Below are positions 3,875 to 48,771 of a stretch of DNA of 64,000 nt, in pieces. The position numbers and the translations under genes are program-made. The stretch is from NCBI GenBank assembly GCA_035367155.1, contig DAOSJI010000002.1:38786-102785 (forward strand). Reading direction: 5' to 3'. The notes under the pieces are model-generated. The model was not told the origin of the DNA. It did not search any database and worked only from the letters and a program-made list of their open reading frames with translations. The DNA comes from Bacilli bacterium. Lineage in GTDB: Bacteria; Bacillota_I; Bacilli_A; RFN20; CAG-826. Position 1 is the first letter of the stretch. The number at the start of each line of letters is the position of its first letter.

Positions 3875-4729
3875 TTATTTCCTCTTTTCGTATTTTACTT
3901 CAGTAGTAATCGTTTGATAACCTTTGTTTTGATATTTTTCTTTTAATTGATTTATTTTATCTATATTTTTACTCATCACAAAAATTGTACTACCTGATCC
4001 AGACATAAGAACAACTTCACAATTTTCTTTTAAGAGCTCATTTTTAAGTATTTCAATGTTAGGTTCAATTTTAAATGCCGCTCTTTCAAGACTATTATAC
4101 ACTCGTTCTCCTAAAGATGATAAATCATCTTTGTTATAAGCTTCAATAACTTCATCAAAGTTTCCGTGATCCCCGCCAACAAAACCATACATTTCGTAGG
4201 CCTTTTTTGTATTTATGCCCTCTTTTGGTTTAACTAAAAGCACTTGTGCTTTAATTGATTTAATAGGTGTTACTTTTTCTCCAATTCCTTCTACTATTGC
4301 GGTTTTGTTTGTTAAGAAAAACGGAACATCAGCTCCAACTTGTTTAGCTATACATAGTTTATCTTTATATTCTAAATTTAAATGTAATAACTCATTAACG
4401 ACATTAATTGTGGTGGCGGCATTACTACTTCCACCACCCAAGCCAGATTGTATGGGTATATGTTTTTTTATTTTTATATTAATACCCTCATTAAACTTAT
4501 ATAATGATCTCATTAATTCGATGGTTTTATATATTATGTTCTCGTTATTTGCTATTTTTGGTCCAATTATTGTCTCAATTATAGTTTTACCACTATTATT
4601 AATAATAAATTCCATCTCATCATGTAATTCTAACGGTAACATTATCATTTTTAATTCATGATAACCATCTTCTCTTTTTTTAATAATATCTAACGTTAGA
4701 TTAATTTTGCTGTAACTTTTTCTTTTCAT
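3875..4729 (-). CDS. ispE: 4-diphosphocytidyl-2-C-methyl-D-erythritol kinase (MEP pathway)
   Basis: KINLTLDI N-terminus, GHMP-kinase motif GLGGGSSNAA and GADVPFF. It overlaps rsmA by 4 nt. Confidence 0.9.
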   Translation of the reverse strand: MKRKSYSKINLTLDIIKKREDGYHELKMIMLPLELHDEMEFIINNSGKTIIETIIGPKIANNENIIYKTIELMRSLYKFNEGINIKIKKHIPIQSGLGGGSSNAATTINVVNELLHLNLEYKDKLCIAKQVGADVPFFLTNKTAIVEGIGEKVTPIKSIKAQVLLVKPKEGINTKKAYEMYGFVGGDHGNFDEVIEAYNKDDLSSLGERVYNSLERAAFKIEPNIEILKNELLKENCEVVLMSGSGSTIFVMSKNIDKINQLKEKYQNKGYQTITTEVKYEKRK

Positions 4730-5550
4730 TTTTTTCTCGTCTTGTTTAGCATTATATCAAATAATAATTGTATTTCATCTATGTTTAATGTTTCGGGTCT
4801 TCTTGATGGTAATATTTTAACCATATTTAATTTTCTTTCAGCCTCTTTTTTGTCTTTTGTTATTGCACTAAGGTTGTTTAAAATCGTTTTTCTTCTTTCC
4901 TTGAATAACAATTTCACAAATTCATAAAACGTTTTCCTATCATTTTGTGAAACAGTTTTTTTACAAACAAAGACACTTACACAAGAAGATATTTTTGGTT
5001 GTGGATAAAAATTCTCCTTATTTATAACCTTAAAAATTTCTAAATTACCCAAACTAGAAATTAATACTGAGATTGGTCCATATTCTTTGCTTCCTGGTTT
5101 AGATAATAACCTATCAATAAAATCCTTTTGTGTCATAAATACAAACTTATCTAGCTTGTTACTTTCTAGTAAAACTTTTTCTATGATTGGCGTTGTAATA
5201 TTATAAGGCAAATTAGAAACGATATTTATATTCTCTTTGATTTTGTTAAGAGGGTATTTTAAAAAGTCAGAGTGCAAAATCGTTATATTATTTACTTTTT
5301 CGGCTTCTTTTTTTAGATATTCAGCAAAACCTCTATCGATTTCGATTGCTAAAACCTTTTTATTGTTTTGTGCTAATTTTTTTGTTAGTGCTCCAAGCCC
5401 TGGTCCAATCTCAATAACATAATCTTGATTTTTTACAAGACTAGTAATATTTTCAGCTATTTCTTCATTAATAAGAAAGTTTTGACCTAAATTTTTATTA
5501 GGAGCTAAGTTTAAATCATTTAGAAGTTGTTTTGTATCTTTTAATTTCAT
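4726..5550 (-). CDS. rsmA: 16S rRNA (adenine1518/1519-N6)-dimethyltransferase
   Basis: LGQNFL motif and SAM-binding EIGPGLGALT. Sits in the conserved rnmV-ksgA context. Confidence 0.93.
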   Translation of the reverse strand: MKLKDTKQLLNDLNLAPNKNLGQNFLINEEIAENITSLVKNQDYVIEIGPGLGALTKKLAQNNKKVLAIEIDRGFAEYLKKEAEKVNNITILHSDFLKYPLNKIKENINIVSNLPYNITTPIIEKVLLESNKLDKFVFMTQKDFIDRLLSKPGSKEYGPISVLISSLGNLEIFKVINKENFYPQPKISSCVSVFVCKKTVSQNDRKTFYEFVKLLFKERRKTILNNLSAITKDKKEAERKLNMVKILPSRRPETLNIDEIQLLFDIMLNKTRKK

Positions 5551-6077
5551 TTTAAAATTTCAATAATTTGACTTTTTGTTATTTGTAGCGCATTTAGTCT
5601 TTTTAAAAATGTTTTTGTTGTAAGTTTTCTTCCTAAATTGAAAGTTTTACAAACATGTTCTCTTAATTTATTACTGTTTTCACCACTTAAGTTTAATTCA
5701 ATAAGATCAATCATAGTTAATTTATTATGGTTGGTGTCTCCTTTTACAAGATAAGGGTTTATAGTTTTTAATAGTGTTTCTTTACTACAATGAGCTAGAC
5801 CTAAATCGTCTTTTTTTATACAATCTTTTTTGTTTAAGTTAATTATTGTAGCTTTCGGAATTTCTTTTTTTATTTTCAAAGCTATTTTTTCTCCTGCTTG
5901 ATCTGGATCGGTCAGTACTAAAATTGGATATAACTTCGAGAGTTCTTTGTAATAATTTATAGTTTCACGTGAAACATAAGAACCGCCTGTTACTTCTACA
6001 ATACAATGGAGAATTGTATTTACAAGTGCTGCATCTGTTGGCCCTTCTACAATAATTACATTACTTACTTTTCTCAT
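5547..6077 (-). CDS. rnmV: Ribonuclease M5 (Toprim domain)
   Basis: Toprim motifs VIIVEGPTDA and LTDPDQAGEKI. Positioned between the tatD-like gene and ksgA, as in Bacillus. Confidence 0.85.
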   Translation of the reverse strand: MRKVSNVIIVEGPTDAALVNTILHCIVEVTGGSYVSRETINYYKELSKLYPILVLTDPDQAGEKIALKIKKEIPKATIINLNKKDCIKKDDLGLAHCSKETLLKTINPYLVKGDTNHNKLTMIDLIELNLSGENSNKLREHVCKTFNLGRKLTTKTFLKRLNALQITKSQIIEILK

Positions 6078-6852: not shown

Positions 6853-8181
6853 TTATTTACCTACACAAAAGCGAGAAAAAATCTCATCTGTTAAATCGTT
6901 ATCATTATGTTCGCCTAAAATTTCAAGAATTGCATTATATGCTCCGTGAAGATTAACGCTAATTAAATCAACTGGAAAATCTTCTTCAGCGTCTCTTTTA
7001 GCTAGTTTTAAATATTCTCTGACTTTTTCTAATAATCCTAATTGTCGTGCATTATTTAAACTTGGTCTAAAATAGCTTTTTTCTTCAATGCCAAAAAGAC
7101 TAATTATTTTTTCTTCTAGTACTGAAACATCTTTTTGAATAGCAGAAACATATATTGCATCTTTTTTATCATCTAATTTTAAATCTGCTTTATTATGAAC
7201 GATAAGTCTTTTTTTATCTTTTGTCATCTCTAATAAATCTTCATCTTCTTTTGTTAATTTTTCGCTGGCATCTAATACCAAAAGAACTAAGTCGGCGTCT
7301 TCAATAGTCTTTTTAGCTTTATGAATGCCGATGTTTTCTACTCTATCTTGAGATTCTCTAATTCCAGCGGTATCAAATAAGTGAAGTGTTATTCCTTTTA
7401 CATTGACACTACCTTCAACAATGTCCCTAGTTGTGCCTGCAATATCAGTGACAATCGCTTTTTCTTCTTGAAGAAAAGCATTTAAAAGAGAAGACTTACC
7501 TACATTAGGTTTGCCAACAATAGCAACATTAATACCTTCTTTAATAATTTTGCCTTGATTTCCTTCATTAATTAACTTTGCAATATCAAGGTTAATTTTG
7601 TCAATTGCGCTTATAATCATCTCTTTGTTTGCTTGTTCGATATCTTCATATTCAGGATAATCGATGTTTACTTCAATCAAACTTAACAGATCAGCGATTT
7701 TCTCTTTTATAGGTTGAATAATAGCACTCGCTTCACCAGAAAGGGAAAGAAGAGCTAAGTTTTTAGCCTCTTTTGTTGTTGCGTTTATCATGTCATTAAT
7801 CGCTTCGGCTTGAATAAGGTCTATTTTATTATTTGCATAAGCTCTTGCACTAAATTCTCCATTTAATGCAATTCTCGCACCAAACCCAAGAAGAATCTCA
7901 ATTATCTCATTAGTAATAAGTGGAGATCCATGAGTAATAATTTCAACTACATCCTCGCCCGTAAATGATTGTGGTCCTTTGTATGCAAGAAGAACAACTT
8001 CGTCTATATTCTTTCCATCTATCCTAATCTTTCCAAAAAAACTTGTTCTTTTTGTAACTTTGGTCAAATCACTAGTAAATATTTTACTAACATGTGAAAA
8101 AGCATCGCTTCCGGAAACGCGAATGATAGCTAAAGCACTTTTAATTGGGGCAGTTGCAACTGCTACTATCGTATCTAACAT
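6853..8181 (-). CDS. mnmE: tRNA uridine-5-carboxymethylaminomethyl modification GTPase
   Basis: G-domain motifs GKPNVGKSSLLN, DTAGIR and NKADL, plus the C-terminal FCVGK motif. Confidence 0.95.
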   Translation of the reverse strand: MLDTIVAVATAPIKSALAIIRVSGSDAFSHVSKIFTSDLTKVTKRTSFFGKIRIDGKNIDEVVLLAYKGPQSFTGEDVVEIITHGSPLITNEIIEILLGFGARIALNGEFSARAYANNKIDLIQAEAINDMINATTKEAKNLALLSLSGEASAIIQPIKEKIADLLSLIEVNIDYPEYEDIEQANKEMIISAIDKINLDIAKLINEGNQGKIIKEGINVAIVGKPNVGKSSLLNAFLQEEKAIVTDIAGTTRDIVEGSVNVKGITLHLFDTAGIRESQDRVENIGIHKAKKTIEDADLVLLVLDASEKLTKEDEDLLEMTKDKKRLIVHNKADLKLDDKKDAIYVSAIQKDVSVLEEKIISLFGIEEKSYFRPSLNNARQLGLLEKVREYLKLAKRDAEEDFPVDLISVNLHGAYNAILEILGEHNDNDLTDEIFSRFCVGK

Positions 8182-8236: not shown

Positions 8237-8267
8237 TAAAAAAAGACCATCATTTTATGATGGTTCG
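8237..8267 (-). terminator. Rho-independent terminator closing the lipid operon, upstream of mnmE
   Basis: The minus strand reads GAACCATCAT-AAA-ATGATGGTC followed by a run of T. It lies 14 nt after the PPTase stop. Confidence 0.65.
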
Positions 8268-8280
8268 TAAACTTTTTAAA

Positions 8281-8859
8281 CTAAATGCTTTTTAAATGAT
8301 TAATCTTTGATCCTTTAGGACTAATTGATACAAAATAGCGATTTTGCTCTTTATCCTTTATTTCATATGTATCGGCATCAGCACTTATCTCTTTTAATAG
8401 TTTAATAGTGACGCCTAGACCTAGCCTTTTTATTTCCGCTTCTTTTTTAGTCCAAATTTTATAGAAATAATCTTTGTTTTTTAAATATCTTTCTAATTCC
8501 TCATCGTTTAAAATTCTTCTTGCGAGTTTATTATTATCCTTTTTAGCAATATATTCAATGTCAACTCCAACATCTTCATTAGATAGAACTACAACTACAA
8601 AATTTAAGGAGTGGGAAATATTGAAAAATAGATTTTTTATTCTTGGTTTTTTATATTTGTTATACTCAATTTTGATGTTTTCCACGGCAAAACCGCTGTC
8701 TTTTAAAATATCTGCTAATAAATACCAGCTAAAAAAACTTCTTTTAAATTGTTCGCTGTCTTTATATTTTTTAGCCTCACTTAAAAAGTTTGTTGGCATT
8801 CTTTTTTTATAAAATTCAACTTCTAAACTAGATATATCAAGAACATAAACCTTGGTCAT
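8281..8859 (-). CDS. Sfp-type 4'-phosphopantetheinyl transferase
   Basis: GVDIEYI metal-binding motif and the WTKKEAEIK motif (W-x-x-K-E-A). 192 aa. Overlaps the upstream gene by 4 nt. Confidence 0.8.
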   Translation of the reverse strand: MTKVYVLDISSLEVEFYKKRMPTNFLSEAKKYKDSEQFKRSFFSWYLLADILKDSGFAVENIKIEYNKYKKPRIKNLFFNISHSLNFVVVVLSNEDVGVDIEYIAKKDNNKLARRILNDEELERYLKNKDYFYKIWTKKEAEIKRLGLGVTIKLLKEISADADTYEIKDKEQNRYFVSISPKGSKINHLKSI

Positions 8860-9260
8860 TCAGATAATACTTTCTTTATGTAATTTGTTACTTTTTCAAC
8901 TTGATAGGATGTTTTTTTACCAAATATACACTCATTACAAAAATGTTCACAGTTATTTTTTAAAATATTATAATTTCCTTCCCCTAGTTTACTTAAGGCA
9001 CAAGCTATAATTTCTTCATTGCTCCTTTTTTCTTTTAGTTCTTGCTTAGAGAATACTTTCACTTCAAGAAATTCAACTAAAAAATCTTTTAAAGGAGATC
9101 TCATGACCACAATATCTTTTTTTAGGGTAAAAGCATCAGAAGGTAAACCAAATTGAACGACCTCACCGTTTCCAATATAGATACCATGGTGATGAATTTC
9201 TCCTACTTTAGTTCTAATATGTGCACCTGGATATGGATCAATAAGCTCCCATTTTTCCAT
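8856..9260 (-). CDS. LRAT/PLAAT-like (NlpC/P60 superfamily) Cys-His thiol acyltransferase/phospholipase
   Basis: His box HHHGIYIGNG and the Cys motif NCEHFCNE, in the order and spacing typical of the LRAT domain. 134 aa. Confidence 0.65.
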   Translation of the reverse strand: MEKWELIDPYPGAHIRTKVGEIHHHGIYIGNGEVVQFGLPSDAFTLKKDIVVMRSPLKDFLVEFLEVKVFSKQELKEKRSNEEIIACALSKLGEGNYNILKNNCEHFCNECIFGKKTSYQVEKVTNYIKKVLSE

Positions 9261-9517
9261 TATTTCCTTCTTTCAATAATATAATCTACAACATCTTCAA
9301 TGGTTTTAAATGTGTTAAAGGTTACCTCGCTCATATCTACACCATATAATTCTTCAATCGCAATAGCTAAATAAATAACACCAACTGAATTGATACCTAA
9401 ATCAGTTGTAATATTATTTTCTAAAGTAACATTTTCAACATTCATTCCATTGGGAATTACTAAATTAAATACTTTTTTTAGCTCATCTAGTACTTGTTGC
9501 TTCTGTTCTCTACTCAT
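9260..9517 (-). CDS. Stand-alone acyl/peptidyl carrier protein
   Basis: 85 aa and acidic, with DLGINSVGVIYL around the predicted phosphopantetheine Ser. Overlaps the upstream adenylase by 4 nt. Confidence 0.75.
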   Translation of the reverse strand: MSREQKQQVLDELKKVFNLVIPNGMNVENVTLENNITTDLGINSVGVIYLAIAIEELYGVDMSEVTFNTFKTIEDVVDYIIERRK

Positions 9518-11034
9518 TTTATTTTTCTTTCTGGTCTAATAATTTTTAAACTTGGTGTTCTTGCAAAGTCTTCAGTTCTTATGACTACTTTATTAATTTT
9601 TTCATATGAGTCGAGAGACTTATTAACTTTGTCAATCTTTTGTTCGAAAAATTGTTGTAAATTTTCTATATTTTTACCGGCTAAAGCACGTTGTCGCGGT
9701 AATAACTCAGCTACTAATATTGTTACTCCATTTTCATTTGTTTCATCATAAACTAGAGAATCTTGAACTTCTTCAAGTTCATTGATTTTATTTTCAATAT
9801 AAGCAGGCGATACGTTTTCTCCGTTTGGTAAAACAATTATTTCTTTAATACGTCCAGTTATATATAAGAAACCCTCTTCATCAATATGAACAAGGTCTCC
9901 AGTTCTAAAATAACCTTCTTCATCAAATGCTTTTTTATTTTCTTCCTCATCGTTATAGTATTTAATCATTAAATTATCGCCTTTAATACGTAATTCATTA
10001 TCGACTATCTTGTATTGTTGATTGGGATAAAATTTTCCAATTGATCTAGGTTTATATGTTGGTTCAGGGTTTCCAGAAACGAGGTTTGCAGATTCTGTTA
10101 ATCCATATCCTGGACAGAAGTGAATTCCTAATTTATTAAATTCAAGTGTTAGATAAGGCGAGACATGAGCGCCTCCAGCAATTACTACTTTTAAATTATT
10201 ACCTAATATACCCATTCCAACTTCTTTAGAAAGTTTGAGGAATATTTCTGCTAAAGCAGGAACTAAAACTAAAATAGTTGGATTAGCGATTTTAATTGTT
10301 TTAAATAATTGCTTCATGTCCGGAGTTGTATAAACCTTACTTCCTGTATAAAGCCCAGTAAGTAAGTTTCTTATAAGGCCAAACACGTGCGTAAAAGGAA
10401 TTAAAGAAACATATACTTGATCAAACGGCTCTTTTAGTCCAAGTGCTCCATTCCAAACACCAGTTAGAAGTGCTTTATGAGACAAAATAGCACCTTTATG
10501 TTTGCCTGTCGTTCCGCTTGTTAAAACAATACATGCAGGATCATCCGTTTTTATAGAAGAAGAAAAAGATGTTAGTTTCTTTTCAAATTTTTCGATTTTA
10601 ATAAACTTAATGTTTGGTAACTTTTCTTTTGTTAATTCCACGACATTTTCCAGCTCTTTTGCGTAAAACAAGGCTTTAATATTGTATTTAAGCATCGAAT
10701 AATAAAGTGCCGTATCGTTTAGTTGTTGTGGAAATAGCGTTGCAACTGCACCATACGCCATAGTACCTAAACTTGCTTTAACAAAGTCGTAATTGTTTGG
10801 TGCAAAAACACCTACATTTTCTTTTTCGTTAATATCGTTTTCTTTTAACTTAAAAGCAATTACAAGTGCATCATCATAAATTTGGTTATATGTGATTTCT
10901 TGTTCATCAACAACACCAATTTTGTCGCCATATTTTTTTATATGTTCCATAAAAAGTGGCATCGTTTTAATTCTTACTAAGTTAGAAAATGTCTTTTCAT
11001 CAGTAAATTGTTTAAAATATTGCGTTTGTTTCAT
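9514..11034 (-). CDS. ANL-superfamily adenylating enzyme (acyl-CoA / acyl-carrier-protein synthetase-like)
   Basis: Intact core motifs LTSGTTGKHKGA, PGYGLTES, FRTGDLV and GRIKEIIVLPNGENVSP. Confidence 0.85.
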   Translation of the reverse strand: MKQTQYFKQFTDEKTFSNLVRIKTMPLFMEHIKKYGDKIGVVDEQEITYNQIYDDALVIAFKLKENDINEKENVGVFAPNNYDFVKASLGTMAYGAVATLFPQQLNDTALYYSMLKYNIKALFYAKELENVVELTKEKLPNIKFIKIEKFEKKLTSFSSSIKTDDPACIVLTSGTTGKHKGAILSHKALLTGVWNGALGLKEPFDQVYVSLIPFTHVFGLIRNLLTGLYTGSKVYTTPDMKQLFKTIKIANPTILVLVPALAEIFLKLSKEVGMGILGNNLKVVIAGGAHVSPYLTLEFNKLGIHFCPGYGLTESANLVSGNPEPTYKPRSIGKFYPNQQYKIVDNELRIKGDNLMIKYYNDEEENKKAFDEEGYFRTGDLVHIDEEGFLYITGRIKEIIVLPNGENVSPAYIENKINELEEVQDSLVYDETNENGVTILVAELLPRQRALAGKNIENLQQFFEQKIDKVNKSLDSYEKINKVVIRTEDFARTPSLKIIRPERKIK

Positions 11035-11046
11035 TTAAGGGTCCTC

Positions 11047-11724
11047 CTAATTCTTATCATAATATTCTGCTAGTTCAAGTTCAATTTCTTTTAACTTATT
11101 TACACAGTTGTTAATCTCATCAATCGTTGGAAATTCTTTTTTAATATGGTCCTTTACATAGAACTTTGGACCAAAAACTGCTTTTTGACGATGGTACCAT
11201 TTTTTCTTCTTTTTATAATACATCGGTAATATTGGAGCGTTAGCAAATAAAGACATTAAAATTACACCGCTTTTGTAATCAGATCCATTTTTATCATGTC
11301 GATTTATTTCGCCTTCAGGAAAAATAGCTACTAAGTGTCCTCTATTTATTCTATCTTGAATTTCTTTAAAAGTTTTCAAAGAAGGATTATCTTTATTAAT
11401 AGATATAACGCGCGACTTTGTCATTAGCCATCCTCTAACTTTATCTTCATATAGATGCTCTGTTGCAACATAGCTAATTCTTCTGAACCAAAAAGCCACA
11501 CCGATTTTAAAAATATCTGTGTAACTAATGTGATTGGCTGAAATAATATACTCACCCTTAAACAAGCCTTTTCGTTTTGTCTTATAATATATTCGTTTGG
11601 GCCAAAAAACAAAAATAAGTGGCCATCCAAAAAACCATTTGACAAAATCATAAAAGAACATCTTATAATCGAAGATTTTTACAAATTTTGATACTTTTTT
11701 ATTACTATCTTTTATCTTTTTCAT
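11047..11724 (-). CDS. PlsC-family (lysophospholipid/glycerolipid) acyltransferase 1
   Basis: HX4D motif NHISYTD, FPEGE block and an N-terminal hydrophobic anchor. 225 aa. Confidence 0.8.
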   Translation of the reverse strand: MKKIKDSNKKVSKFVKIFDYKMFFYDFVKWFFGWPLIFVFWPKRIYYKTKRKGLFKGEYIISANHISYTDIFKIGVAFWFRRISYVATEHLYEDKVRGWLMTKSRVISINKDNPSLKTFKEIQDRINRGHLVAIFPEGEINRHDKNGSDYKSGVILMSLFANAPILPMYYKKKKKWYHRQKAVFGPKFYVKDHIKKEFPTIDEINNCVNKLKEIELELAEYYDKN

Positions 11725-12346
11725 CGAGCTTCTTTCCTAATGAAATAATATAGTTCCTAACATAATTTGTTAAGCGTTCAACGTTTTCTTTTTCGCTTAA
11801 AGAGTGATCATATAATTCCGTTAAATAAATTTTTTCACCAATTATACAACTCGTATAACCCTTTTTCTTAAACTTCTTATTGTGATAAACAGGTACTATT
11901 GGTGCTCCAGATTCCAAGGCTATATAGACAAAACTTGGTGTAAAAGGAAGTAGGTCCATCTCATGTTCTAATGGAAATCTTGCTTCTGGGAAAATAAGCA
12001 ATTTTTGTTTCTTATTCAATGCGTTTACTGCTTTGCTCATAAAAGTAAAATCATAGGCATCTCTTTCAACCTTTATTCCACCAATCGCTCTTGCTAGAAA
12101 ATTAAAGGCTTTGTTGTAGTGAAAAAGCGCTTCACCTATTAATGGTCGTAAATTTGATTGATAAAACACAAAAAGATAAAGAGCGAAATCATATACATAA
12201 AAATGATTTGAAACAACAATCGCTTTTCCTTTAATTCGTCGCCCTTGGGATTTTCTGTTTTCGTAATATACTTTACGACGCCTAAAATAAAACAAGGATG
12301 GTATATATCCCGTGATGCGAAGAAACCATTGAACAAACTTATACAT
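11705..12346 (-). CDS. PlsC-family acyltransferase 2
   Basis: HX4D motif NHFYVYD and an FPEARF block. 213 aa. Overlaps the downstream paralog by 20 nt. Confidence 0.75.
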   Translation of the reverse strand: MYKFVQWFLRITGYIPSLFYFRRRKVYYENRKSQGRRIKGKAIVVSNHFYVYDFALYLFVFYQSNLRPLIGEALFHYNKAFNFLARAIGGIKVERDAYDFTFMSKAVNALNKKQKLLIFPEARFPLEHEMDLLPFTPSFVYIALESGAPIVPVYHNKKFKKKGYTSCIIGEKIYLTELYDHSLSEKENVERLTNYVRNYIISLGKKLDEKDKR

Positions 12347-14264
12347 TATAAATCTTGGCTACTTTGTTTAGTTTAATCTGCATAACAATGTAGGAAACAA
12401 TATTTAGCCCAAACACTGCTAAAACAGCGTATAAAACACTAAAGTCCTTCATTTCAATATTTTGTTTTTTGCATTCCTCATATAGAGCTTTGCTATTTAA
12501 ATAAACAACATAAGCATAATAAGGAGGAAGTAAAATAGATAAAATGTAATGAATTAGTTTGGTCTTTTTTGTATTAAAAACATTAATTTTATTTATAATG
12601 CCATATCGCCATATCGCACCAAACAAGGTTCCCGATAAAACAAATAAGGCAATACTAACAGGAAGAACTTCCTCTTCAATAACGGGTTCTTTTGCTTCAT
12701 GAAAGAGGTGTTTATTTTCTTCGTATTCTTTTTCTAGGCCCAAAGCTTTTGAAACTTTTTTAGGGGTATAGTTTCTTGGCATCCTAAACGCTAGCATAAA
12801 ACCAAGAAAACAGAAAACAGAAACAATAACTGGAACAAGTATCCAAGATAAGTTATGCACTGATGCTTCACTTGCTCCAAATAATACAGCGGCTTTTTCA
12901 ACATTTTCTGCCCAAACAACACCGCTTTTCTCTTTTGAGATAAAAAGCATCTTAATAGATTCATAAACTAGACCACCTGCTATTGCTCCGACAATAGAAG
13001 AAGTAACAGCTTGGGCTGCAAAATACATAGCAGAGTGGTTTCTTTTTGTTAATTTTTCTTCAACTGAAGAGATTTGTGCAGGAATTAAGTAGGGCATCAT
13101 AAAAAACGAACCAATCGCCCATGATCCTATAACTCCTCCTACACAGCCAATAATCATTTGAAGGGTGACATTATTTTCGCCCATTACAAAACGGCTAGCT
13201 AAAACAAAAGAAAGAATACAAACAGAAAAGCTAATTAAGCATGTTTGGTACGCAAATCTAATACCTTTTCGATCCTTTACTTTATTAAATAGATATAACA
13301 TTATTGGCACTGGTGCAAAGGCACAAGTATTTAAAATCGCCATTTGTCCTCCGTCCATTCCCATACCACCATCAATTAAGGTATTCATTGAGACAAGGAA
13401 CATTTGTAGGCCAAAAAATGTACAACAATTAACCGCTAACCATCTTAAGAAAATTCTGTTAGTAAATGTAAGTTTAATACTTTCAATAATTCCAACTTTT
13501 TCTTCTTCCGCTAAAGGAGTAATATCATATCCTTCTTCAATCAATTTTTGTTCATGTTTATCACCTTCTTTAATCATAAAAACAGGAATTAACATTGTTA
13601 GCATAAGTGGAACAAGAATAAAAACCAATTTATCAATTCTAATATTTAAAGCTTTCAATAGTAACGGCACTAAAGCATATGTTAGTACATAAGAGATTGT
13701 ATCGAAAAAAGCTTTGTAACTTGAAACTTTTGTTCTTTGTTTTTCATTAATACATACTGTGGATAAACTTCCATAAAAAGCAATTAAACTCATTGTATAA
13801 GCTGCAAAGAAGATTAATGCCATTATAGTAATCCAAATGGTATTTATAATCTGATTTGTTTCTATGTTTTCTGTATTACCAATAGGTATCCACATTAAAA
13901 CATAAGTAAGAACCATCGGAATAAAACTAACAAGAATAGGAATTCTGCGTCGTCCCCATTTTGTTCTTAGCCCATCTGTTAGGGCTGCTAGCGGAATATC
14001 AATAATTCCATCAAACATCTTTGCCAACGCCCATAAAATTGGAAATATCGCAGGCAAGATTAAAGGTATCGTCGTGATTGCTTGTAGCGATCCTTCCGAA
14101 AGTGCAGCAGGATTAATCGCATCCGTAAAGTAAGCACCTAAAATAACCATCAATAAATTTGGACCAAACCCTGAAGCTGCATAAAGTATCTCCTTCCAAG
14201 GCTTGTTTAATAAGACAAATTTCTTTTTTGGTTTTTCGTTTTGCATAACCATTTCCTTACTCAT
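12339..14264 (-). CDS. GPH/MFS_2-family transporter with an extra C-terminal 3-TM module
   Basis: The loop 2-3 signature DGIIDIPLAALTDGLRTKWGRRRIP aligns with the MelB/MFSD2A motif. About 12 TM segments are followed by a charged linker and three further hydrophobic helices. 641 aa. Confidence 0.75.
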   Translation of the reverse strand: MSKEMVMQNEKPKKKFVLLNKPWKEILYAASGFGPNLLMVILGAYFTDAINPAALSEGSLQAITTIPLILPAIFPILWALAKMFDGIIDIPLAALTDGLRTKWGRRRIPILVSFIPMVLTYVLMWIPIGNTENIETNQIINTIWITIMALIFFAAYTMSLIAFYGSLSTVCINEKQRTKVSSYKAFFDTISYVLTYALVPLLLKALNIRIDKLVFILVPLMLTMLIPVFMIKEGDKHEQKLIEEGYDITPLAEEEKVGIIESIKLTFTNRIFLRWLAVNCCTFFGLQMFLVSMNTLIDGGMGMDGGQMAILNTCAFAPVPIMLYLFNKVKDRKGIRFAYQTCLISFSVCILSFVLASRFVMGENNVTLQMIIGCVGGVIGSWAIGSFFMMPYLIPAQISSVEEKLTKRNHSAMYFAAQAVTSSIVGAIAGGLVYESIKMLFISKEKSGVVWAENVEKAAVLFGASEASVHNLSWILVPVIVSVFCFLGFMLAFRMPRNYTPKKVSKALGLEKEYEENKHLFHEAKEPVIEEEVLPVSIALFVLSGTLFGAIWRYGIINKINVFNTKKTKLIHYILSILLPPYYAYVVYLNSKALYEECKKQNIEMKDFSVLYAVLAVFGLNIVSYIVMQIKLNKVAKIYNV

Positions 14265-14268
14265 ATTT

Positions 14269-15699
14269 CTATCCCTTCTTTCTATTTCTTAAAATATAAT
14301 TACTAAGTTTCCTTACTGTATCTAAATTACCATCTTCATTAAGATTAAAATCAACATTATATTTTATTTTTAGTCGCATAAGTAGGGTAATATAATCTAA
14401 ACTTGATGCTCCTAAATCAAAAATTAAATGAGAATTAAGTCGAATCTCTTTTTTGTCCTTATTTAAAATTTCGACAATTATTTCAATGATCTCTGTTGTT
14501 ATTAATTGATTTAATTCCTCTGTTGTTAAATCGTTTGTTTTAAAGTCATGAAGTGTTATTAACTCTACATTTCCTGCTTCAATTGAATGTTTTAAGATTG
14601 TTCTACTTACTTTTATTGCTTGAGGAGGTGCGATACGATCAAATGTTATATAGACTTTTTCAATATAATATTTGTTTTGTTGTAATCGCTCTAGATTCTT
14701 TTCTATTTCAGCGATTACTTCACTTTTCATTAATTCATGAAAATTATCATCTAGTTCAACAATTAGTGCTAAATACTGCGTGGTGTTTTCTTTAATGCCT
14801 ATAACTGAAAAGCGATTAATCAACTTAAAAGCTAGTGCTTTTTCAATCATGTCTGGATTGTTTTTCTCTCCGTTTGAAGAAACGACAATATCGTCTTCTC
14901 GTCCTAAAAGAAAATAATGATTTCTGTTTTTAGTAGAGATATCTTTAGTATTAAACCAAGTAGAAGGTGTAATTTCTTTAGTTCCTTCTTTTGAAATCGT
15001 TTTATATGCAAGGGAGGTTCCTTTTACAAATAAAATTTTATCTTCTATTTTGTATGATACGGATTCAAAAGGACTTCCAATTGAAGCTTTAATTCTTTTG
15101 TTTGCTCTTAATCTTAATTCTACAGAGGTTATCCCGATTTCACTCATTCCGTATCCATTAAATAAAGGATATCCAATTGCATTAATTATTCTAATTGCCT
15201 CTGGACTAATATAACTTCCGCCCGTAATAAGGAATGTTAGACTATCTCCAAATAATTTAGTTTGTATTTCTTTAAACATCCGTTTAGCAAGTCTAATGCC
15301 GAAACGTGGAAATATTGATTGAATAAAAAGACTAAAAGAAACTGCTCTATCAAAGCGTTTTTTAGTCTTTTTCCCTCTTTTATCAAGCTCTTTGTTGATT
15401 TCCTTATGAACCCCATGCCAAAGAAGAGGAACTGCAAAAAGATGTGTAACTTTATGTCTTTTAATTGTATTTAGAATTGTATCGGTTGAATAATCTTTTA
15501 AAAAGACAAAAGTTCTACTAAAAAAAGCAAACCAAAAATACATCGCAATAAGACCAAAAACATGATAAAAAGGTAAAAAGGCTAAATGTTTTAATTCTCC
15601 GTTATAATGAGTCATTATTAGTTTGTTTTTTCTAATAATTCCTTTAGTATCAAGAATTTGTTGAGCAATATTTAGTCCTTTATATACAGACTTTAACAT
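14269..15699 (-). CDS. C-terminal part of an adenylase-carrier protein fusion (ANL domain from after motif A3, plus a carrier domain)
   Basis: ANL motifs are present but divergent: NGYGMSE, WFNTKD instead of TGD, and GREDDIVVSSNGEKNNP. The C-terminal carrier domain has DLGASSLDYITL. This ORF starts inside the stop region of the upstream fragment. Confidence 0.7.
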   Translation of the reverse strand: MLKSVYKGLNIAQQILDTKGIIRKNKLIMTHYNGELKHLAFLPFYHVFGLIAMYFWFAFFSRTFVFLKDYSTDTILNTIKRHKVTHLFAVPLLWHGVHKEINKELDKRGKKTKKRFDRAVSFSLFIQSIFPRFGIRLAKRMFKEIQTKLFGDSLTFLITGGSYISPEAIRIINAIGYPLFNGYGMSEIGITSVELRLRANKRIKASIGSPFESVSYKIEDKILFVKGTSLAYKTISKEGTKEITPSTWFNTKDISTKNRNHYFLLGREDDIVVSSNGEKNNPDMIEKALAFKLINRFSVIGIKENTTQYLALIVELDDNFHELMKSEVIAEIEKNLERLQQNKYYIEKVYITFDRIAPPQAIKVSRTILKHSIEAGNVELITLHDFKTNDLTTEELNQLITTEIIEIIVEILNKDKKEIRLNSHLIFDLGASSLDYITLLMRLKIKYNVDFNLNEDGNLDTVRKLSNYILRNRKKG

Positions 15700-16225
15700 T
15701 TAATGTTGTCGCACTTGAAGTAAGGGCTATCTCGTTTTCCCACGAGAAATCGTCAATAGATTTATTAGTTGATTCAAGGTGAATTTTTTCAATATTTATT
15801 TCATTTTCTACTAAATTAACATCTTTGTCTGAAATAATTGTCTTAACTTTAAGAAGTTCGATGACATCTTTGTTTAAAGAGGGGCCTAGTTTAACGTTAA
15901 AAAGCACTGGTTTATAACCTGCCATAAGAAGACCCCAAAAAGAAAAAATCCATTCTTTCCGGTTTTCCATCATTAGTCCTACATAACTACCTTTTTCTAA
16001 AGTAATATGTTTACTAAAATAGTTTCCCATTTGTATGGACAATTCTTTTGCTTCTTTATAAGTTATTTTATGAATCTTATAATCGTTTAAATATTCACAA
16101 AATGTGTTTTCTTCTTGATAATGAATGCATTGAAAAATGTCTTTAAAAGATTGTTTAGAATTTTGAAGCAATTCTATACGTTTATTAACAATCTTTAATA
16201 GTTTTCTCATATTAAGTCTGGACAC
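15680..16225 (-). CDS. N-terminal fragment of the same adenylase (up to a degenerate A3 motif), split by a frame change
   Basis: 181 aa ending ...ALTSSATTLNVKVCI where the A3 motif TSGTTGxPKG is expected. The track start is GTG at 16225, and an alternative ATG lies at 16210. Overlaps the next ORF by 20 nt in another frame. Confidence 0.6.
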   Translation of the reverse strand: MSRLNMRKLLKIVNKRIELLQNSKQSFKDIFQCIHYQEENTFCEYLNDYKIHKITYKEAKELSIQMGNYFSKHITLEKGSYVGLMMENRKEWIFSFWGLLMAGYKPVLFNVKLGPSLNKDVIELLKVKTIISDKDVNLVENEINIEKIHLESTNKSIDDFSWENEIALTSSATTLNVKVCI

Positions 16226-16245
16226 CTTTCAATGTTGTTTTTTTA

Positions 16246-16860
16246 CTACTCGTTTGAAAGGGGTTCATCGACACTTATAGTAATTCTTCGGTTGTAGCCT
16301 GTTCCAGTTGACTCAGTTTTAATACCTTTTATCCTTCCCAAAGCGTTATGAACTGCTCGACGTTCATCTGCTGTCATTGGATCAAGTGTAACTGGTTTTT
16401 TTGTTTTAATTACATTTCGGGCTAATCTTTTTGCATGACTAGTAATCTTTCGATATTTATCACTTTTATAGTCATTAATATCGAGTAAAATTCGGACTCG
16501 TTTTTTAAATTTTCGCATTGCAGCGATTTTAACAAGTTCATTTAATGCTGCTAAAGTGCGCCCGTTTTTACCAATTAATATTGAATTGTGATTTGTTTCA
16601 ATTTCTAATATAATAACATCATCATTAAGTGATGGTTTAATATGAGGATCTTCGACAAATAAACTAATAATGCGATTTAGATAGTCGACAACATAGTTTA
16701 CAATGTCGCTTGTTTCATAAACTTCAATTTCAACTTTTTTGCTAAAAAGTCGTTTTTCCTCTAAAAGGATTTCGTAACTTAAGTCTTCAATAGGAATTCC
16801 TAAATCGTTACTAGCTTCCTCTAAAACTTGTTCTAATGTTTTTCCTTTATATGTTTTCAT
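16246..16860 (-). CDS. khpB: Jag/KhpB RNA-binding protein (Jag_N-KH-R3H)
   Basis: C-terminal R3H region LDPMTADERRAVHNAL. Conserved position downstream of yidC, with an ATGA overlap. Confidence 0.9.
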   Translation of the reverse strand: MKTYKGKTLEQVLEEASNDLGIPIEDLSYEILLEEKRLFSKKVEIEVYETSDIVNYVVDYLNRIISLFVEDPHIKPSLNDDVIILEIETNHNSILIGKNGRTLAALNELVKIAAMRKFKKRVRILLDINDYKSDKYRKITSHAKRLARNVIKTKKPVTLDPMTADERRAVHNALGRIKGIKTESTGTGYNRRITISVDEPLSNE

Positions 16861-27897: not shown

Positions 27898-28917
27898 ATG
27901 AGACCATTAATTTACTTTCCAAAAGAGAAAGATGGCAGTATCTATCAAACCGCGCGGCTTAGAAAAAATATCAAAGCCGCTTTTGAGCATTTGAATGTTC
28001 CTTACTATGAAAAAAATCGCGGTAATATAGATATTGCTCTTTTTGGATCGCTTAGAAATAAAGATATAAACCAAATAAAAAAATGTAAAAAAAGAAACAT
28101 ACCAACAATCTTTTTTGCTCTTTACCAAGAAAGCGATTCTTTTAGTGAATTAGTTAAAATTAAAAGAACTGGACAATTATATATAAGTAAAAAAGACTTA
28201 GATTCACTAAATGAAATAGATCTCATTTTGGTTCCAAGCGAAGAAGCAAAGCGATACTTAAAGAGTTTTGGTGTAAATGCTGAAATAAAGACATTATTTA
28301 CCCCCGTAAATGTAGAACGTTTTAATAGTGAGCACGTACTTGAAAAAACAATTTTTAATAGATATTTCCGATTAAAAGAGGATACAAAAATAATCATAGG
28401 AACGACTAATACTAAAAATGTTGAAGGAGTAGAGATGTTTTCGACATTAGCTAATCGATTTCAAGATTATGTGTTTTTCTATTTTATCGAAACAAATAGT
28501 TTTAAAGATCGCTTTTTTGTAAAAAAGTTAGCAAATAAAAATCCATCAAATTTAATTGTTCGTTCATTAGTTAATGATGATGTTTTTAGAAGCGGTTTAA
28601 TGAATGCAAATTTCTATATTGAAACAAGTAATAAAAAAGTTGGTACACTTTCATTGGTAGACACATTTGCAAGTGAGACACACTTAATTGCTTGCAAGAA
28701 CGCCATTTATAACGATGTAGTTGATGAAAATGTCGCTTCGGTTTATTTAACGCTAGAAAACATTATTAACATTATTGAAAAAGGTGAAAGTTCTTATGAT
28801 AAACAACGCAAAAACGCACTAAAACGCGCAGAAAAGGCTTCAATTTCAAATTTTGCGAATAAATTAAAAGAGATAATAGAGACACTTTTAAATAAAAGAA
28901 AGCAGGTGGGAAGATGA
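27898..28917 (+). CDS. GT4-like glycosyltransferase paralog with a degenerate catalytic motif
   Basis: Collinear similarity to the GT4 at 48772-49788: LIYFPKE/LIYFEGE, KKCKKRNIPTIFF/RKCKRKNIPVIVH and DLILVPSEEAKRYLKSFG/DLIVTPTLYSENLIKSYG. The E-x7-E position reads KKVGTLSLVD. Confidence 0.5.
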   Translation: MRPLIYFPKEKDGSIYQTARLRKNIKAAFEHLNVPYYEKNRGNIDIALFGSLRNKDINQIKKCKKRNIPTIFFALYQESDSFSELVKIKRTGQLYISKKDLDSLNEIDLILVPSEEAKRYLKSFGVNAEIKTLFTPVNVERFNSEHVLEKTIFNRYFRLKEDTKIIIGTTNTKNVEGVEMFSTLANRFQDYVFFYFIETNSFKDRFFVKKLANKNPSNLIVRSLVNDDVFRSGLMNANFYIETSNKKVGTLSLVDTFASETHLIACKNAIYNDVVDENVASVYLTLENIINIIEKGESSYDKQRKNALKRAEKASISNFANKLKEIIETLLNKRKQVGR

Positions 28918-30897: not shown

Positions 30898-32196
30898 ATG
30901 AAAAAGATGACAGTTTCATTGGTAGCACTAATGTCCCTAGCAGCTTTAGCAGGTTGTACAAAAAAACCAACCCCATCATCTAGTTCAGAAGCTCCAGTTG
31001 TTTCCGATAGCACAACATCAGAAGTTGAAGATACTAGAAAACCATGGGAAAAGCTTTATTTTGGAAACAACGATGCAAGGCTTGGAAACTTTGTAGCAGA
31101 TCTACCCTTACCTGCAGACGGAGAAGAAAGTAGACTCTTAAATAGTGATGAACTTTCTGGACTTGTTGCTCTTATTCAAACAAATGATGAAGTAATTAAT
31201 GTTCAAGGAAGCATCATTGATGAACAATGGTTTGCTGGTGATGGCTCTAGAGAAGACATTTCTACAGCAGACATTGCAATTGAAGGACAAGCTCTAGCCT
31301 TAAGATATGATAACTATGTATTACATCAACAAGCTGCATATACAACCACATATACATGGGATGAAGAACAAATCATTGAAGATAGCAGTGAAGAAGTTAG
31401 TGAACCAGTTAGCGGAAGGATTTTACATCCAGGTGTAAAGAAAGATACCCTTGTTTATTTTTCAGAAACCGTATCTGAAGAACCAGGAAGTGAACCAACA
31501 AGTGAAGGACCATTAACGACTGAAGTTGAAGTAACACAAACTACTGAAACACTAGAAAACACTGTTATTAGACCCCTTGAACATGAAGGCGAAGATGTTA
31601 TTGCGGTTCAAAATAAATATGGTGGTATTCTTGGTAACGGCGTTGAATTTTTCAACTATTCTGACACACTATACAAAAACACATTCAATATCGGTGGTGG
31701 TGCTCGTTGGATTGATAGCAAAACAAATTCACAATATGGATATGACGCTTGGTATGGAGCAATAACACAACAAACAAGTTGGATGGCTGATGTTGAAGCA
31801 GGAACCCGCCAACTTGGTAAATTATACGAAGCTGAACTTATGGCCGATGGAACCATTTATCTCTTAGATAGCTGGGTTCTTACACCAAAACCAGTCTATA
31901 TTGATGGACAATATTATGGTGGTTACTTTGGATTTGTCGGTGGAGCATTAGTTGTAATTGAAGAAGGAATCGTTTCTAACTTACTTGTAAGAATAGGTTA
32001 TGTCCTTCACTACTGGCTTGGTCCAGATGCCCCACCTAATGCACAACATTACGTTCCAGAAGAAGGTCGAACATTCGATTGGACAGAATACGCTCCCTAC
32101 TATTACTTTGGTGATAATTTAGGTTTTGGCGTTCTTGATGACAATGGTGAGTTTGATCTAACTGAATGGGATATTGCTGATTTCGAAGTAGAATAA
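30898..32196 (+). CDS. Acidic surface lipoprotein, unknown function
   Basis: Signal peptide with lipobox LAG-C, a Ser/Thr-rich linker and a strong AGGAGG RBS. TTGACA/TAATAT promoter-like hexamers lie upstream. Confidence 0.7.
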   Translation: MKKMTVSLVALMSLAALAGCTKKPTPSSSSEAPVVSDSTTSEVEDTRKPWEKLYFGNNDARLGNFVADLPLPADGEESRLLNSDELSGLVALIQTNDEVINVQGSIIDEQWFAGDGSREDISTADIAIEGQALALRYDNYVLHQQAAYTTTYTWDEEQIIEDSSEEVSEPVSGRILHPGVKKDTLVYFSETVSEEPGSEPTSEGPLTTEVEVTQTTETLENTVIRPLEHEGEDVIAVQNKYGGILGNGVEFFNYSDTLYKNTFNIGGGARWIDSKTNSQYGYDAWYGAITQQTSWMADVEAGTRQLGKLYEAELMADGTIYLLDSWVLTPKPVYIDGQYYGGYFGFVGGALVVIEEGIVSNLLVRIGYVLHYWLGPDAPPNAQHYVPEEGRTFDWTEYAPYYYFGDNLGFGVLDDNGEFDLTEWDIADFEVE

Positions 32197-39830: not shown

Positions 39831-41001
39831 TTTTATTTTTCAAATTCCAACCAAATTATATTTCGGCGAAAACCAAGAATATAAAATAGCTGACATTTTG
39901 CAAGCGCTTAATGTAAAAAGACCTTTAATTTTAATTGGTCAACAATCTGTAATTAGAAGTGGTTTATTAAAAATAGTAACGGATATACTTGATGAAAAGA
40001 AAATCGATTATCAAATATATAAAGGAATAACACCAAATCCTGAAATTTATTTTGTAAGAGAAGGTGTAAAAAAAGCAAGAGAGTTTGAAGCTGATTTAAT
40101 TTTAGCAATAGGAGGCGGATCAGTTATTGATGTAGCAAAAGGAATGGCCTGTTCTTATTTTTATAGTGGAGACCCATTAGATTTATTCATTCATACTTAT
40201 CGACCAACAGTCGCCCTTCCGATTGGAGTGATTTTAACTCATGCTGCTGCCGGAAGTGAAATGTCGACAAGTGCTGTTATAAGTGATAGTAAAAATCATT
40301 TTAAACAAGGATATAATCATCAATTGAATAGACCAACTTTTGCTATTTGCAATCCTAAATATACTTTGACATTGCCACCTCATCAAACCGCGGTTGGTAT
40401 TGTTGACATACTAATGCATACATTGGAAAGATATTTTAATAAAAGCGACGAATATGAAGTAAGCGATTATTTTGCTGAGGGACTTTTAAAAGGTGTTATT
40501 GAAGTTGGATACGCTCTAATGAAAAATCCAAATAATTTAAAAGCTAGAGCAAGTCTAATGTTATTTAGTTCATTATCACATTGTGGAATAACAAGTATTG
40601 GTAAAGAAGGACTTATGCCGATTCACGTTCTTGAACATCCAATAAGTGCATTATATCCATCGGTTGCTCATGGAGCTGGATTAGCAGTTATGTGGGGACC
40701 GTGGGCACGTCATTATGTAGAAAAAGATACTGCAAAATTTGTTTCTTTTGCACAAAACGTGCTTCAAATTAATGAACCAAGTTTAGATTGTCTAGAATTA
40801 GCTAAATTAGGCGTTAAACAACTTGATGATTATTTTAAACATTTAAATGTTAAAATAAGACTTCGCGACTATGGTGTTAAGAAGGATGATTTAGTAACTC
40901 TAGCCAAAATTGCGACCAAAAATAAAAAAAGTTCAATTTATCACTATACAGGGTCTTTAACATACGAAGAAGTGCTTCGTTTGTATGAAGAGGCCTATTA
41001 G
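39823..41001 (+). CDS. Iron-containing (group III) alcohol dehydrogenase
   Basis: GGGSVIDVAKG and conserved His-rich metal-site regions. 392 aa. Confidence 0.88.
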   Translation: MNSFIFQIPTKLYFGENQEYKIADILQALNVKRPLILIGQQSVIRSGLLKIVTDILDEKKIDYQIYKGITPNPEIYFVREGVKKAREFEADLILAIGGGSVIDVAKGMACSYFYSGDPLDLFIHTYRPTVALPIGVILTHAAAGSEMSTSAVISDSKNHFKQGYNHQLNRPTFAICNPKYTLTLPPHQTAVGIVDILMHTLERYFNKSDEYEVSDYFAEGLLKGVIEVGYALMKNPNNLKARASLMLFSSLSHCGITSIGKEGLMPIHVLEHPISALYPSVAHGAGLAVMWGPWARHYVEKDTAKFVSFAQNVLQINEPSLDCLELAKLGVKQLDDYFKHLNVKIRLRDYGVKKDDLVTLAKIATKNKKSSIYHYTGSLTYEEVLRLYEEAY

Positions 41002-43339: not shown

Positions 43340-43355
43340 AACACGGAGTTAAATT

Positions 43356-44123: not shown

Positions 44124-44124
44124 C

Positions 44125-46051: not shown

Positions 46052-46097
46052 TTAATATTATGATATAATTAACTAAAGGTGCTTATAGGAGATTACT

Positions 46098-48770: not shown

Positions 48771-48771
48771 A

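Follow-up and report, generated by a model that had tools for sequence, protein, structure and literature searches.

An uncharacterised, conserved cluster of acyl-activation and acyl-transfer genes between jag and mnmE in a Bacilli genome

A 64,000-nucleotide stretch of a Bacilli bacterium genome (lineage CAG-826, contig DAOSJI010000002.1), referred to below as the window, was found to carry nine minus-strand open reading frames (ORFs) between jag and mnmE, which correspond to an operon of eight genes with one gene split. The operon encodes an adenylase-carrier fusion (A1T), an MFS transporter, two PlsC-type acyltransferases (PlsC1 and PlsC2), a stand-alone ANL adenylase (A2), a free acyl carrier protein (ACP), an LRAT/PLAAT-type Cys-His enzyme (here simply LRAT) and an Sfp-type 4'-phosphopantetheinyl transferase (PPTase). 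The finding is real, conserved and uncharacterised; the enzyme families, and the general purpose of acyl activation and transfer linked to lipid scavenging, were already known. We propose, with a probability of roughly one half, that the cluster is a self-contained, carrier-dependent system by which fatty acids would be activated and esterified into membrane glycerolipid in bacteria that live on scavenged lipid. This mechanism is inferred from the domain identities, the intact catalytic motifs, the conserved gene order, the insertion of the cluster at its present site, its association with Fak, PlsX and hydrolase genes, the alternation of A2 with PlsX, and the fusions of LRAT to PPTase.

All genes of the cluster and both its flanks, jag (16246–16860; Jag_N/KH/R3H) upstream and mnmE (6853–8181) downstream, lie on the minus strand. 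Adjacent ORFs of the cluster overlap by 1–20 nt, the longest overlap being that of PlsC1 with PlsC2 (20 nt), or are separated by 4–12 nt. The operon is followed by an intrinsic-terminator-like hairpin and a T-run (8264–8246), and next, ahead of mnmE, by the promoter-like TATGATAAAAT. An initial annotation, made from the sequence alone, had described nine tightly packed ORFs ending in a terminator, and the ORF table bears this out. Its domain calls also hold, as every ORF scored above the curated Pfam gathering score for its domains. When the same proteins were scanned against NCBIfam, every score for a named equivalog was far below its cut-off and none was assigned. In the databases they are named only 'AMP-binding protein', 'hypothetical protein' or 'lecithin retinol acyltransferase family protein'.

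The conservation of the gene set was examined with a profile of LRAT homologues. Relatives of LRAT were found in at least 535 species-level genomes, the best 80 of which were compared together with metagenome loci (numbered with the prefix L). The full core was confirmed in 60 of these 80 genomes. In 67 of 85 non-redundant loci the order of the core was A1T, (MFS), PlsC1, PlsC2, (A2), (ACP), LRAT, (PPTase), where brackets mark genes that may be missing. The gene set is no chance product, given that dozens of distant genomes share its order, and conservation outside this genome, which the initial annotation had put forward for checking, was borne out. Since the flanking genes vary among genomes, the set moves as a unit. 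The core consists of A1T, the two PlsC genes and LRAT, with a free ACP in 59 of the 67 core loci; the accessory parts are the MFS gene (26 of 67), A2 (31 of 67) and the PPTase gene. Of the parts list drawn up earlier, therefore, the co-occurrence of the core stands, but many versions lack the MFS_2 transporter, the second adenylase or the PPTase, which are not constant parts.

The set occurs in Erysipelotrichaceae, in unclassified Bacilli, in Acholeplasmatales and Candidatus Pelethenecus, in Oscillospiraceae, Acutalibacteraceae, Ruminococcus, Lachnospiraceae, Butyrivibrio crossotus and Christensenellaceae, and in a Mycoplasmataceae genome. The bin labelled Mycoplasmataceae (L060, 3600–10850) carries A1T, MFS, PlsC1, PlsC2, A2, LRAT and PPTase. 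Its genes read as short ORFs under translation table 11, the protein alignments span the stops concerned, and the identity rises slightly when TGA is read as Trp. From its sequence, the system thus appears to be present also in a Mollicute that uses code 4. No description of this cluster was found in the literature or among curated families, in agreement with the earlier statement that the combination was not recognisable as a described system.

The genes that accompany the cluster were examined by clustering the flanking ORFs; representatives of the 10 most recurrent families, and the genes around the cluster of B. crossotus, were annotated with Pfam. Among the 67 core loci, clustering gave an alpha/beta hydrolase (Hydrolase_4 type) in 43, FakA in 32, DegV/FakB in 28, PlsX in 20, a GT2 glycosyltransferase in 19 and a zinc-ribbon membrane protein in 23. 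The presence/absence table for the same loci gave 34 for the hydrolase, 36 for FakA, 35 for DegV/FakB, and 22 each for PlsX and GT2. In B. crossotus, A1T, PlsC1, PlsC2, A2, ACP, an LRAT::PPTase fusion, a hydrolase, DegV, MFS_2, FakA and another hydrolase follow one another on one strand. In loci of the Oscillospirales type, a plsX-fakA-degV-degV block adjoins the cluster; its orientation and side vary, and the adjacency is kept. With FakA, DegV/FakB, PlsX and alpha/beta hydrolases as the commonest neighbours elsewhere, the lipid-scavenging context suggested in the initial annotation receives independent support. As for the input, the link to Fak and PlsX speaks for free fatty acids no less strongly than for lysolipids.

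In the Firmicute Fak-PlsX-PlsY-PlsC route, PlsX makes acyl-ACP from the acyl-phosphate of FakA/FakB (PMC10146087, PMC12594616), and in Enterococcus faecalis the auxiliary ACP AcpB, dedicated to exogenous fatty acids, works with PlsX (PMC6509188). The present system resembles this arrangement in having a dedicated, atypical ACP and, in relatives, in adjoining fakA, degV and plsX. A2 alone was found in 31 of the 67 core loci, PlsX alone in 22, neither in 14 and both in none, so that PlsX appears to replace A2. Such exclusivity would be expected, since both would serve to make acyl-ACP, and it fits A2 and PlsX being two alternative ways to that product. The window cluster differs from the Fak route in using ATP-dependent adenylases, without Fak or PlsX, and that route has nothing equivalent to A1T, to the paired PlsC enzymes or to LRAT.

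The association with Fak genes and lipases would also suit a detoxifying or buffering role, in which toxic free fatty acids are captured on the carriers and then either esterified into inert lipid or hydrolysed and exported by the MFS protein, with LRAT as an acyl-carrier thioesterase. The rumen, gut and digester habitats concerned are rich in free long-chain fatty acids, and a Cys-His hydrolase beside an ACP could serve as a thioesterase. However, two dedicated acyltransferases with intact sites would be superfluous for export, no efflux-type regulator was seen, and the window MFS gene lies inside the biosynthetic part of the operon. We consider such a role very unlikely.

Further neighbours recur in subsets of the loci. 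A zinc-ribbon protein of ~156 aa, with a C-terminal half that is hydrophobic by eye, is encoded immediately upstream of A1T in Clostridia (L020, 6087–6557, and 22 other loci). A 217-aa protein without a Pfam match is encoded just after LRAT/PPTase, again in Clostridia (L036, 10990–11643, and 11 other loci), and DUF4190 membrane proteins lie 3' of LRAT in another subset.

The enzymes expected to activate the acyl groups are A1T and A2. In the window, A1T is encoded by an N-terminal fragment (15680–16225; Pfam AMP-binding, positions 17–139) and a C-terminal fragment (14269–15699) that comprises the remaining adenylation domain and the fused carrier (Pfam AMP-binding, AMP-binding_C_3 and PP-binding). 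A2 (9514–11034; 506 aa) matched AMP-binding with 177 bits, and also AMP-binding_C_3. All the ANL core motifs A3–A10 of A2 are canonical, and its motif LTSGTTGKHKGA could be read directly in the sequence. Its best matches were long-chain fatty-acid-CoA ligases (NCBIfam), MenE and 4-coumarate ligases. For A1T, an alignment of 60 homologues showed conservation of motifs A5, A7, A8 and A10 and of the carrier serine; the P-loop is conserved as well, in the non-canonical form S-S-x-T-x-x-N-x-K-x-C-x-Y. Neither adenylase has the amino-acid-binding Asp at A4 (PFTHVFG and LPFYHVFG), and the best NCBIfam matches of both are fatty-acid-CoA ligases. For these two reasons both adenylases are, as far as motifs and profiles tell, of the acyl/aryl type and not of the amino-acid type. 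Pockets of the latter type had been mentioned in the initial annotation as a finding that would speak against a lipid role, and the check went the other way.

An AlphaFold2 model of A1T had a predicted local distance difference test score (pLDDT) of 85. Its best fold matches in the PDB were didomains of an adenylation domain and a peptidyl carrier protein (A-PCP; McyG and carboxylic acid reductase), AasS, MenE and FadD13, with AasS at ranks 3, 9, 13 and 15. In Vibrio harveyi, the soluble acyl-ACP synthetase AasS serves to recycle exogenous fatty acids (PMC12086093); it belongs to the ANL enzymes and attaches free fatty acids to ACP, and is thus among the known enzymes close to what is proposed here. 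The structural comparison covers A1T, which is only ~16% identical to AasS and differs from it by the fused carrier and the non-canonical P-loop. What points to carrier loading by the two adenylases is the presence of fused or adjacent carriers together with the modelled likeness of the A1T fold to AasS and A-PCP didomains. A2 is accordingly only proposed, from its sequence, as an acyl-ACP synthetase.

The carriers would be primed by the PPTase (8281–8859; 192 aa; Pfam ACPS and AASDHPPT_N), whose NCBIfam matches AusB, HetI and AcpT were all below cut-off. Together with a free carrier, an Sfp-type enzyme of this kind and the didomain architecture of A1T, whose top structural match was the McyG A-PCP didomain, could belong to a small-molecule pathway resembling a nonribosomal peptide synthetase (NRPS), Dlt or siderophore system and unrelated to lipids. 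Against this, condensation, thioesterase, reductase, ketosynthase, MBOAT and DltD components were not found in any version of the cluster or in the neighbour families annotated (the 10 most recurrent), neither adenylase has the Asp that binds amino acids, and the neighbours are lipid genes. We regard such a pathway as extremely improbable. The absence of ketosynthase, condensation and MBOAT components, noted earlier for the window cluster, thus extends to the related clusters and these neighbour families. An NRPS or polyketide synthase assembly line was rejected because condensation, ketosynthase and terminal thioesterase or reductase domains were not found in the window cluster or the neighbour families annotated. 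The Dlt system (DltA-DltC-DltB-DltD) likewise has a stand-alone adenylase next to a small carrier; it was rejected because neither an MBOAT protein (DltB) nor DltD is present in the window or related clusters, the adenylases are of the acyl type, and no DltA is among the top 25 matches.

PlsC1 (11705–12346; 213 aa) and PlsC2 (11047–11724; 225 aa) matched the Pfam Acyltransferase family (PF01553) with 64 and 61 bits, compared with a cut-off of 23. The motifs NHxxxxD and FPE are conserved in PlsC1 (56 homologues) and in PlsC2 (52 homologues), and PlsC2 also keeps FPEG and KSG. In several genomes the two are fused into one protein of ~430 aa. Searches of the PDB with either sequence returned nothing useful. 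An identity as housekeeping 1-acyl-glycerol-3-phosphate acyltransferase was rejected (TIGR00530, 58 and 37 against 103 bits; PRK15018, 19 against 501 bits). The ornithine-lipid enzymes OlsA/OlsB were also rejected, the NCBIfam scores being far below cut-off or the partner genes absent. The free ACP (9260–9517; 85 aa; Pfam PP-binding) has a conserved D-l-g-x-N-S in 66 homologues. It is not the housekeeping AcpP, as its best ACP equivalog score was 43.6 against 84 bits and its site reads G-I-N-S instead of G-A-D-S; by sequence it is a divergent ACP.

A closely similar set of known parts is that of Escherichia coli Aas/LplT (Aas being a 2-acylglycerophosphoethanolamine acyltransferase/acyl-ACP synthetase and LplT a lysophospholipid transporter) and of fused MFS-PlsC-adenylase proteins, which have in common with the window an MFS protein, an HX4D PlsC-type acyltransferase, an ANL adenylase and, as proposed for the window, ACP-bound acyl groups. 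In the window, however, the parts are separate genes and are duplicated (two adenylases, two carriers and two acyltransferases); private carriers, a PPTase of its own and LRAT are added, and the transporter is of the MFS_2 and not the LplT (MFS_1) type. Membership in the Aas or LplT-Aas families was rejected, as the genes are unfused and the scores were 61 against 1221 bits (PRK08633), 130 against 1349 (PRK06814) and 18 against 886 (PRK08043). Because equivalog models fail widely, the MFS subfamily differs and the genes are unfused, the system is like a disaggregated, duplicated Aas/LplT, and like the Fak-PlsX-AcpB system of E. faecalis, but is a member of neither.

The transporter (12339–14264; 641 aa) matched Pfam MFS_2 (GPH-type) with 105 bits. 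It carries a C-terminal membrane extension of ~145 aa that was found only in MFS proteins encoded within the cluster and that is not related to the recurrent zinc-ribbon, DUF4190 or 217-aa neighbour proteins. NCBIfam lysophospholipid-transporter models did not match the window MFS, the only matches being a gph domain model and MelB, far below cut-off. A search of the PDB with its sequence gave no match.

Another possibility is the lysolipid salvage put forward in the initial annotation, which also supposed that head groups may be remodelled. Here MFS_2 would take up a lysophospholipid, a lyso-glycolipid or a backbone stripped of its acyl chains, such as a glycerophosphodiester or glycosylglycerol derived from plant or host lipid. 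The PlsC pair would re-acylate it from the carriers, as in E. coli LplT/Aas, and LRAT would remodel the acyl chains. The MFS_2/GPH family includes the eukaryotic lysolipid carrier MFSD2A. In addition, the best NCBIfam match of PlsC2 was the acyltransferase region of acyl-[ACP]-phospholipid O-acyltransferase, an MFS-PlsC-adenylase fusion, again far below cut-off, and A2 also matched the adenylase region of such models. Clusters of the Lachnospiraceae type have MFS_2 between degV and fakA, with lipase-like hydrolases on the flanks. However, the MFS gene is absent from 41 of the 67 core loci, and import by it is therefore not a core function. The Aas and LplT-Aas scores given above tell against this salvage too, the MFS protein has no detectable sequence relative in the PDB, and there is no indication of its transport direction or substrate. 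Salvage of lysolipids seems unlikely to us as the purpose of the cluster.

LRAT (8856–9260; 134 aa) scored 75.1 bits against Pfam LRAT (PF04970), with a cut-off of 24.3. The motifs NNCEHF (with Cys103) and HHH were read directly and aligned to those of PLAAT3; in 27 homologues H23, H24 and NNCE are invariant and Q35 is nearly so. The AlphaFold2 model (pLDDT 90.8) had the catalytic domains of PLAAT2/3/4 as its top seven PDB matches, with target-normalised template modelling scores (TM-scores) of 0.68–0.78. By profile, motifs and its permuted papain-like fold, the window protein is a true member of the LRAT/PLAAT family. PLAAT/HRASLS enzymes, LRAT and LnsA work through an acyl-Cys intermediate, from which the acyl group goes on to water, an alcohol or an amine (PMC4624172, PMC7387801, PMC13559823). 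The window protein shares with the mammalian PLAAT/HRASLS enzymes and LRAT, and with Staphylococcus aureus LnsA, the fold, the NCEHF cysteine and the histidine. It differs from them in that the third polar residue is Gln in place of His, and in that its gene stands beside an ACP gene and is often fused to the PPTase gene. No signal peptide or membrane helix was found in its sequence, which ends in an amphipathic C-terminal helix, so that a soluble protein is predicted; PLAATs are anchored by a C-terminal helix and LRAT by N- and C-terminal helices. The donors of the known enzymes are phospholipids, and a carrier-thioester donor is our proposal here. LnsA, for its part, works outside the cell with phosphatidylglycerol as its acyl donor (PMC7387801, PMC13559823), and the Tox-Act1 toxins of the type VI secretion system form a sister clade (PMC12994826). 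LnsA, an acyltransferase, and Tox-Act1 were the only characterised bacterial LRAT-like enzymes found in the literature.

LRAT was fused to PPTase in 22 loci, and 22 of the 23 long LRAT proteins are such fusions, which ties LRAT to carrier-protein chemistry. It may be noted that the LRAT model also matched chain E7 of the Euglena gracilis respiratory supercomplex I+III2+IV (8iuf; E 2e-4), and that the A1T carrier domain matched acyl carrier subunits of 8iuf; an LRAT-fold protein and ACPs thus occur together in an unrelated complex. LRAT occurs without the other cluster genes in L023, L028, L029, L037, L054, L068 and L072 (Anaeroplasmataceae and a few other bins). Where checked, it has pyrG or other housekeeping genes on one side and a ROK kinase, an AsnC-type regulator and ABC exporters on the other; these neighbours were uninformative as a hint to function.

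A third acyl-transfer enzyme raises the possibility that the product is a specialised, multiply acylated surface lipid (a glycolipid, an aminolipid or an N-acylated lipid), with LRAT as an additional N- or O-acyltransferase and the MFS protein exporting or flipping the product. That there are three enzymes for acyl transfer, and two carriers loaded separately, suggests a product with defined, different acyl groups. N-acylation is known for PLAAT enzymes, which act on phosphatidylethanolamine, and for LnsA, which acts on lipoproteins (PMC4624172, PMC13559823), and the papain-fold protein BtrH acylates an amine with a group taken from an ACP (PMC10318531). GT2 genes (22 loci) and a gene of the polysaccharide-deacetylase type recur beside clusters of the Oscillospirales type. 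The glycosyltransferase and deacetylase genes are, however, absent from the window form and many others, and LRAT differs from LnsA and the mammalian enzymes in having neither a signal peptide nor a membrane anchor. Moreover, the cluster is kept in metagenome-assembled genomes labelled as Mollicute-type lineages (Mycoplasmataceae, Acholeplasmatales and Candidatus Pelethenecus). Lineages of this type have small genomes, and a core function therefore fits better than an ornament. A specialised surface lipid is, in our opinion, a doubtful product.

Returning to the esterification of scavenged fatty acids into membrane glycerolipid, the following scheme may be drawn. The PPTase would prime both private carriers, namely the A1T carrier domain and the free ACP of 85 aa. 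A1T would adenylate a fatty acid and load its own carrier, and A2 would load the free ACP in the manner of AasS, as suggested by fold, motifs and gene pairing; in genomes without A2, acyl-ACP would come from FakA/FakB and PlsX through acyl-phosphate. PlsC1 and PlsC2, with HX4D intact, would then move two acyl groups from the carriers to two hydroxyls of a glycerol-based acceptor, the carriers being taken as donors because of the known behaviour of the PlsC/LPLAT family. LRAT, whose gene is always 3' of the ACP gene, may act on acyl-carrier thioesters through an acyl-Cys, as a shuttle, as a releasing or editing hydrolase, or in a third acyl transfer; this is the least certain step. Where present, MFS_2 would carry a putative lipid-derived substrate or product across the membrane. 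A more specific version is possible but tentative. The cluster may provide membrane-lipid assembly independent of FASII (the type II pathway for making fatty acids), and optionally of PlsX, in lipid-scavenging anaerobic Firmicutes and their wall-less relatives, where two carriers and two dedicated adenylases, each feeding its own PlsC, would supply two acyl positions and a soluble PLAAT/LRAT protein would work on acyl-carrier thioesters.

Several points weigh against the proposed role in fatty-acid esterification. Fak, PlsX, DegV or similar genes were not found in the window cluster or in the rest of the 64 kb, and in other genomes fakA, degV and plsX can be adjacent for reasons unrelated to the cluster. 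The exclusivity of A2 and PlsX represents few independent events, since the split largely follows lineage (Oscillospirales-type versus Lachnospiraceae and Bacilli types). With its non-canonical P-loop, A1T could have a chemistry unlike that of standard ANL enzymes. Likeness in fold and in hidden Markov model scores does not fix the chain length of the substrate, and the scores for MenE and aryl-acid ligases are as good as those for fatty-acid ligases. Finally, LRAT is not strictly dependent on the other cluster genes, because Anaeroplasmataceae and several other metagenome-assembled genomes keep it alone.

The site of the cluster was compared with that in relatives by searching metagenome contigs with MnmE and then mapping yidC, jag and mnmE onto the matches. 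In ~30 relatives (MnmE 55–66% identical), yidC, jag and mnmE are contiguous, with a jag-mnmE spacer of 40–110 nt; the 7.9-kb cluster lies between jag and mnmE only in the window species (loci L001–L003, L011, L091 and L092, 97–100% identical). The cluster is therefore an insertion, as the initial annotation had supposed. Its position in the jag/mnmE junction was also correct, but the distance of 20 nt from the jag stop was not: the likely start of A1T is the ATG at 16210, just preceded by GAAAGG, which leaves a gap of 35 nt. In five relatives inspected, the jag-mnmE spacer contains a terminator hairpin, after which comes a promoter-like element. The hairpin stands directly 3' of jag in these relatives, and its equivalent in the window stands 3' of the PPTase gene, so that, from the sequence, the cluster looks as if placed upstream of the apparent ancestral jag terminator. 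A terminator-like site was not found when the jag-A1T spacer was scanned. With the jag-type hairpin now after the PPTase gene, read-through is plausible, and the simplest expectation is that the cluster is probably co-transcribed with rnpA-yidC-jag. Recent foreign DNA was rejected as an origin, as GC content and GC content at third codon positions are the same in the cluster as in the flanking housekeeping genes, and neither direct repeats nor an integrase was found at the edges. Since the cumulative GC skew changes direction at the start of dnaA (19332), the cluster is ~3 kb from the replication origin; the strand is transcribed in the direction of replication.

The split of A1T could be traced to one strain allele. 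The window was 100% identical to metagenome contig L002 over 13.5 kb, and L001 and L003 differ from it by one 2-nt indel. Base-by-base comparison with L001 showed a (TA)3 run in the window (15681–15686) in place of (TA)4 in the intact allele, and the loss of one TA splits A1T just past the P-loop. The intact allele of L001 encodes a single adenylase-carrier protein of 647 aa, residues 1–176 of which are collinear with the N-terminal fragment of the window. From the short allele a product of 476 aa results, for which 13 contigs (50 kb to 1 Mb) carry the coding sequence; because of this the short allele is real and common, and no assembly error. The gene is intact in every other species compared. 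An ancient pseudogene or a design feature was therefore rejected as an explanation, given the 2-nt TA deletion and the intact genes of sister strains and other species. The split reported in the initial annotation is thus present in the ORFs, but it is a strain allele due to loss from a TA run and not a feature of the system. As A1T is the only adenylase kept by every version, the operon of the window strain is probably disabled by this slippage frameshift. The TA polymorphism could be a fixed loss of function in one lineage or an on/off switch driven by slippage. In a contig 97–98% identical to the window (L091, LSQX01407907.1), the MFS gene within the cluster (4434–5840) lacks the stretch for residues 104–257; this is either a second, independent lesion in the same operon or an assembly artefact.

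Elsewhere in the window, a surface-glycan cluster on the plus strand (42218–50320) includes a UDP-GlcNAc 2-epimerase, a Bac_transf priming transferase, two GT4 proteins, an esterase, an 890-aa protein without a Pfam match and a protein of the 2'-5' RNA ligase superfamily. Three plus-strand ORFs (27898–28917, 30898–32196 and 40985–42136; 339, 432 and 383 aa) had no Pfam match at E <= 1e-5.

Many anaerobes of the gut, the rumen and digesters have small genomes, and membrane building from scavenged fatty acids in such organisms is known mainly through the Fak-PlsX-PlsY-PlsC route of a few model Firmicutes. A second, widely conserved module for acyl activation and transfer would, if the proposal is true, change this picture of scavenging and matter for the question whether inhibitors of fatty-acid synthesis can be bypassed by such organisms. 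The alternation of A2 or PlsX offers a clean experimental handle, and B. crossotus, to which one genome bin carrying the cluster is assigned, is a cultured species. The bacterial homologues of LRAT/PLAAT studied so far are the extracellular LnsA and some toxin relatives, and the cluster would give the bacterial family a testable function. If the more specific version given above is true, bacterial LRAT homologues would for the first time have a known function in the cytoplasm, and the family would gain a new class of donor.

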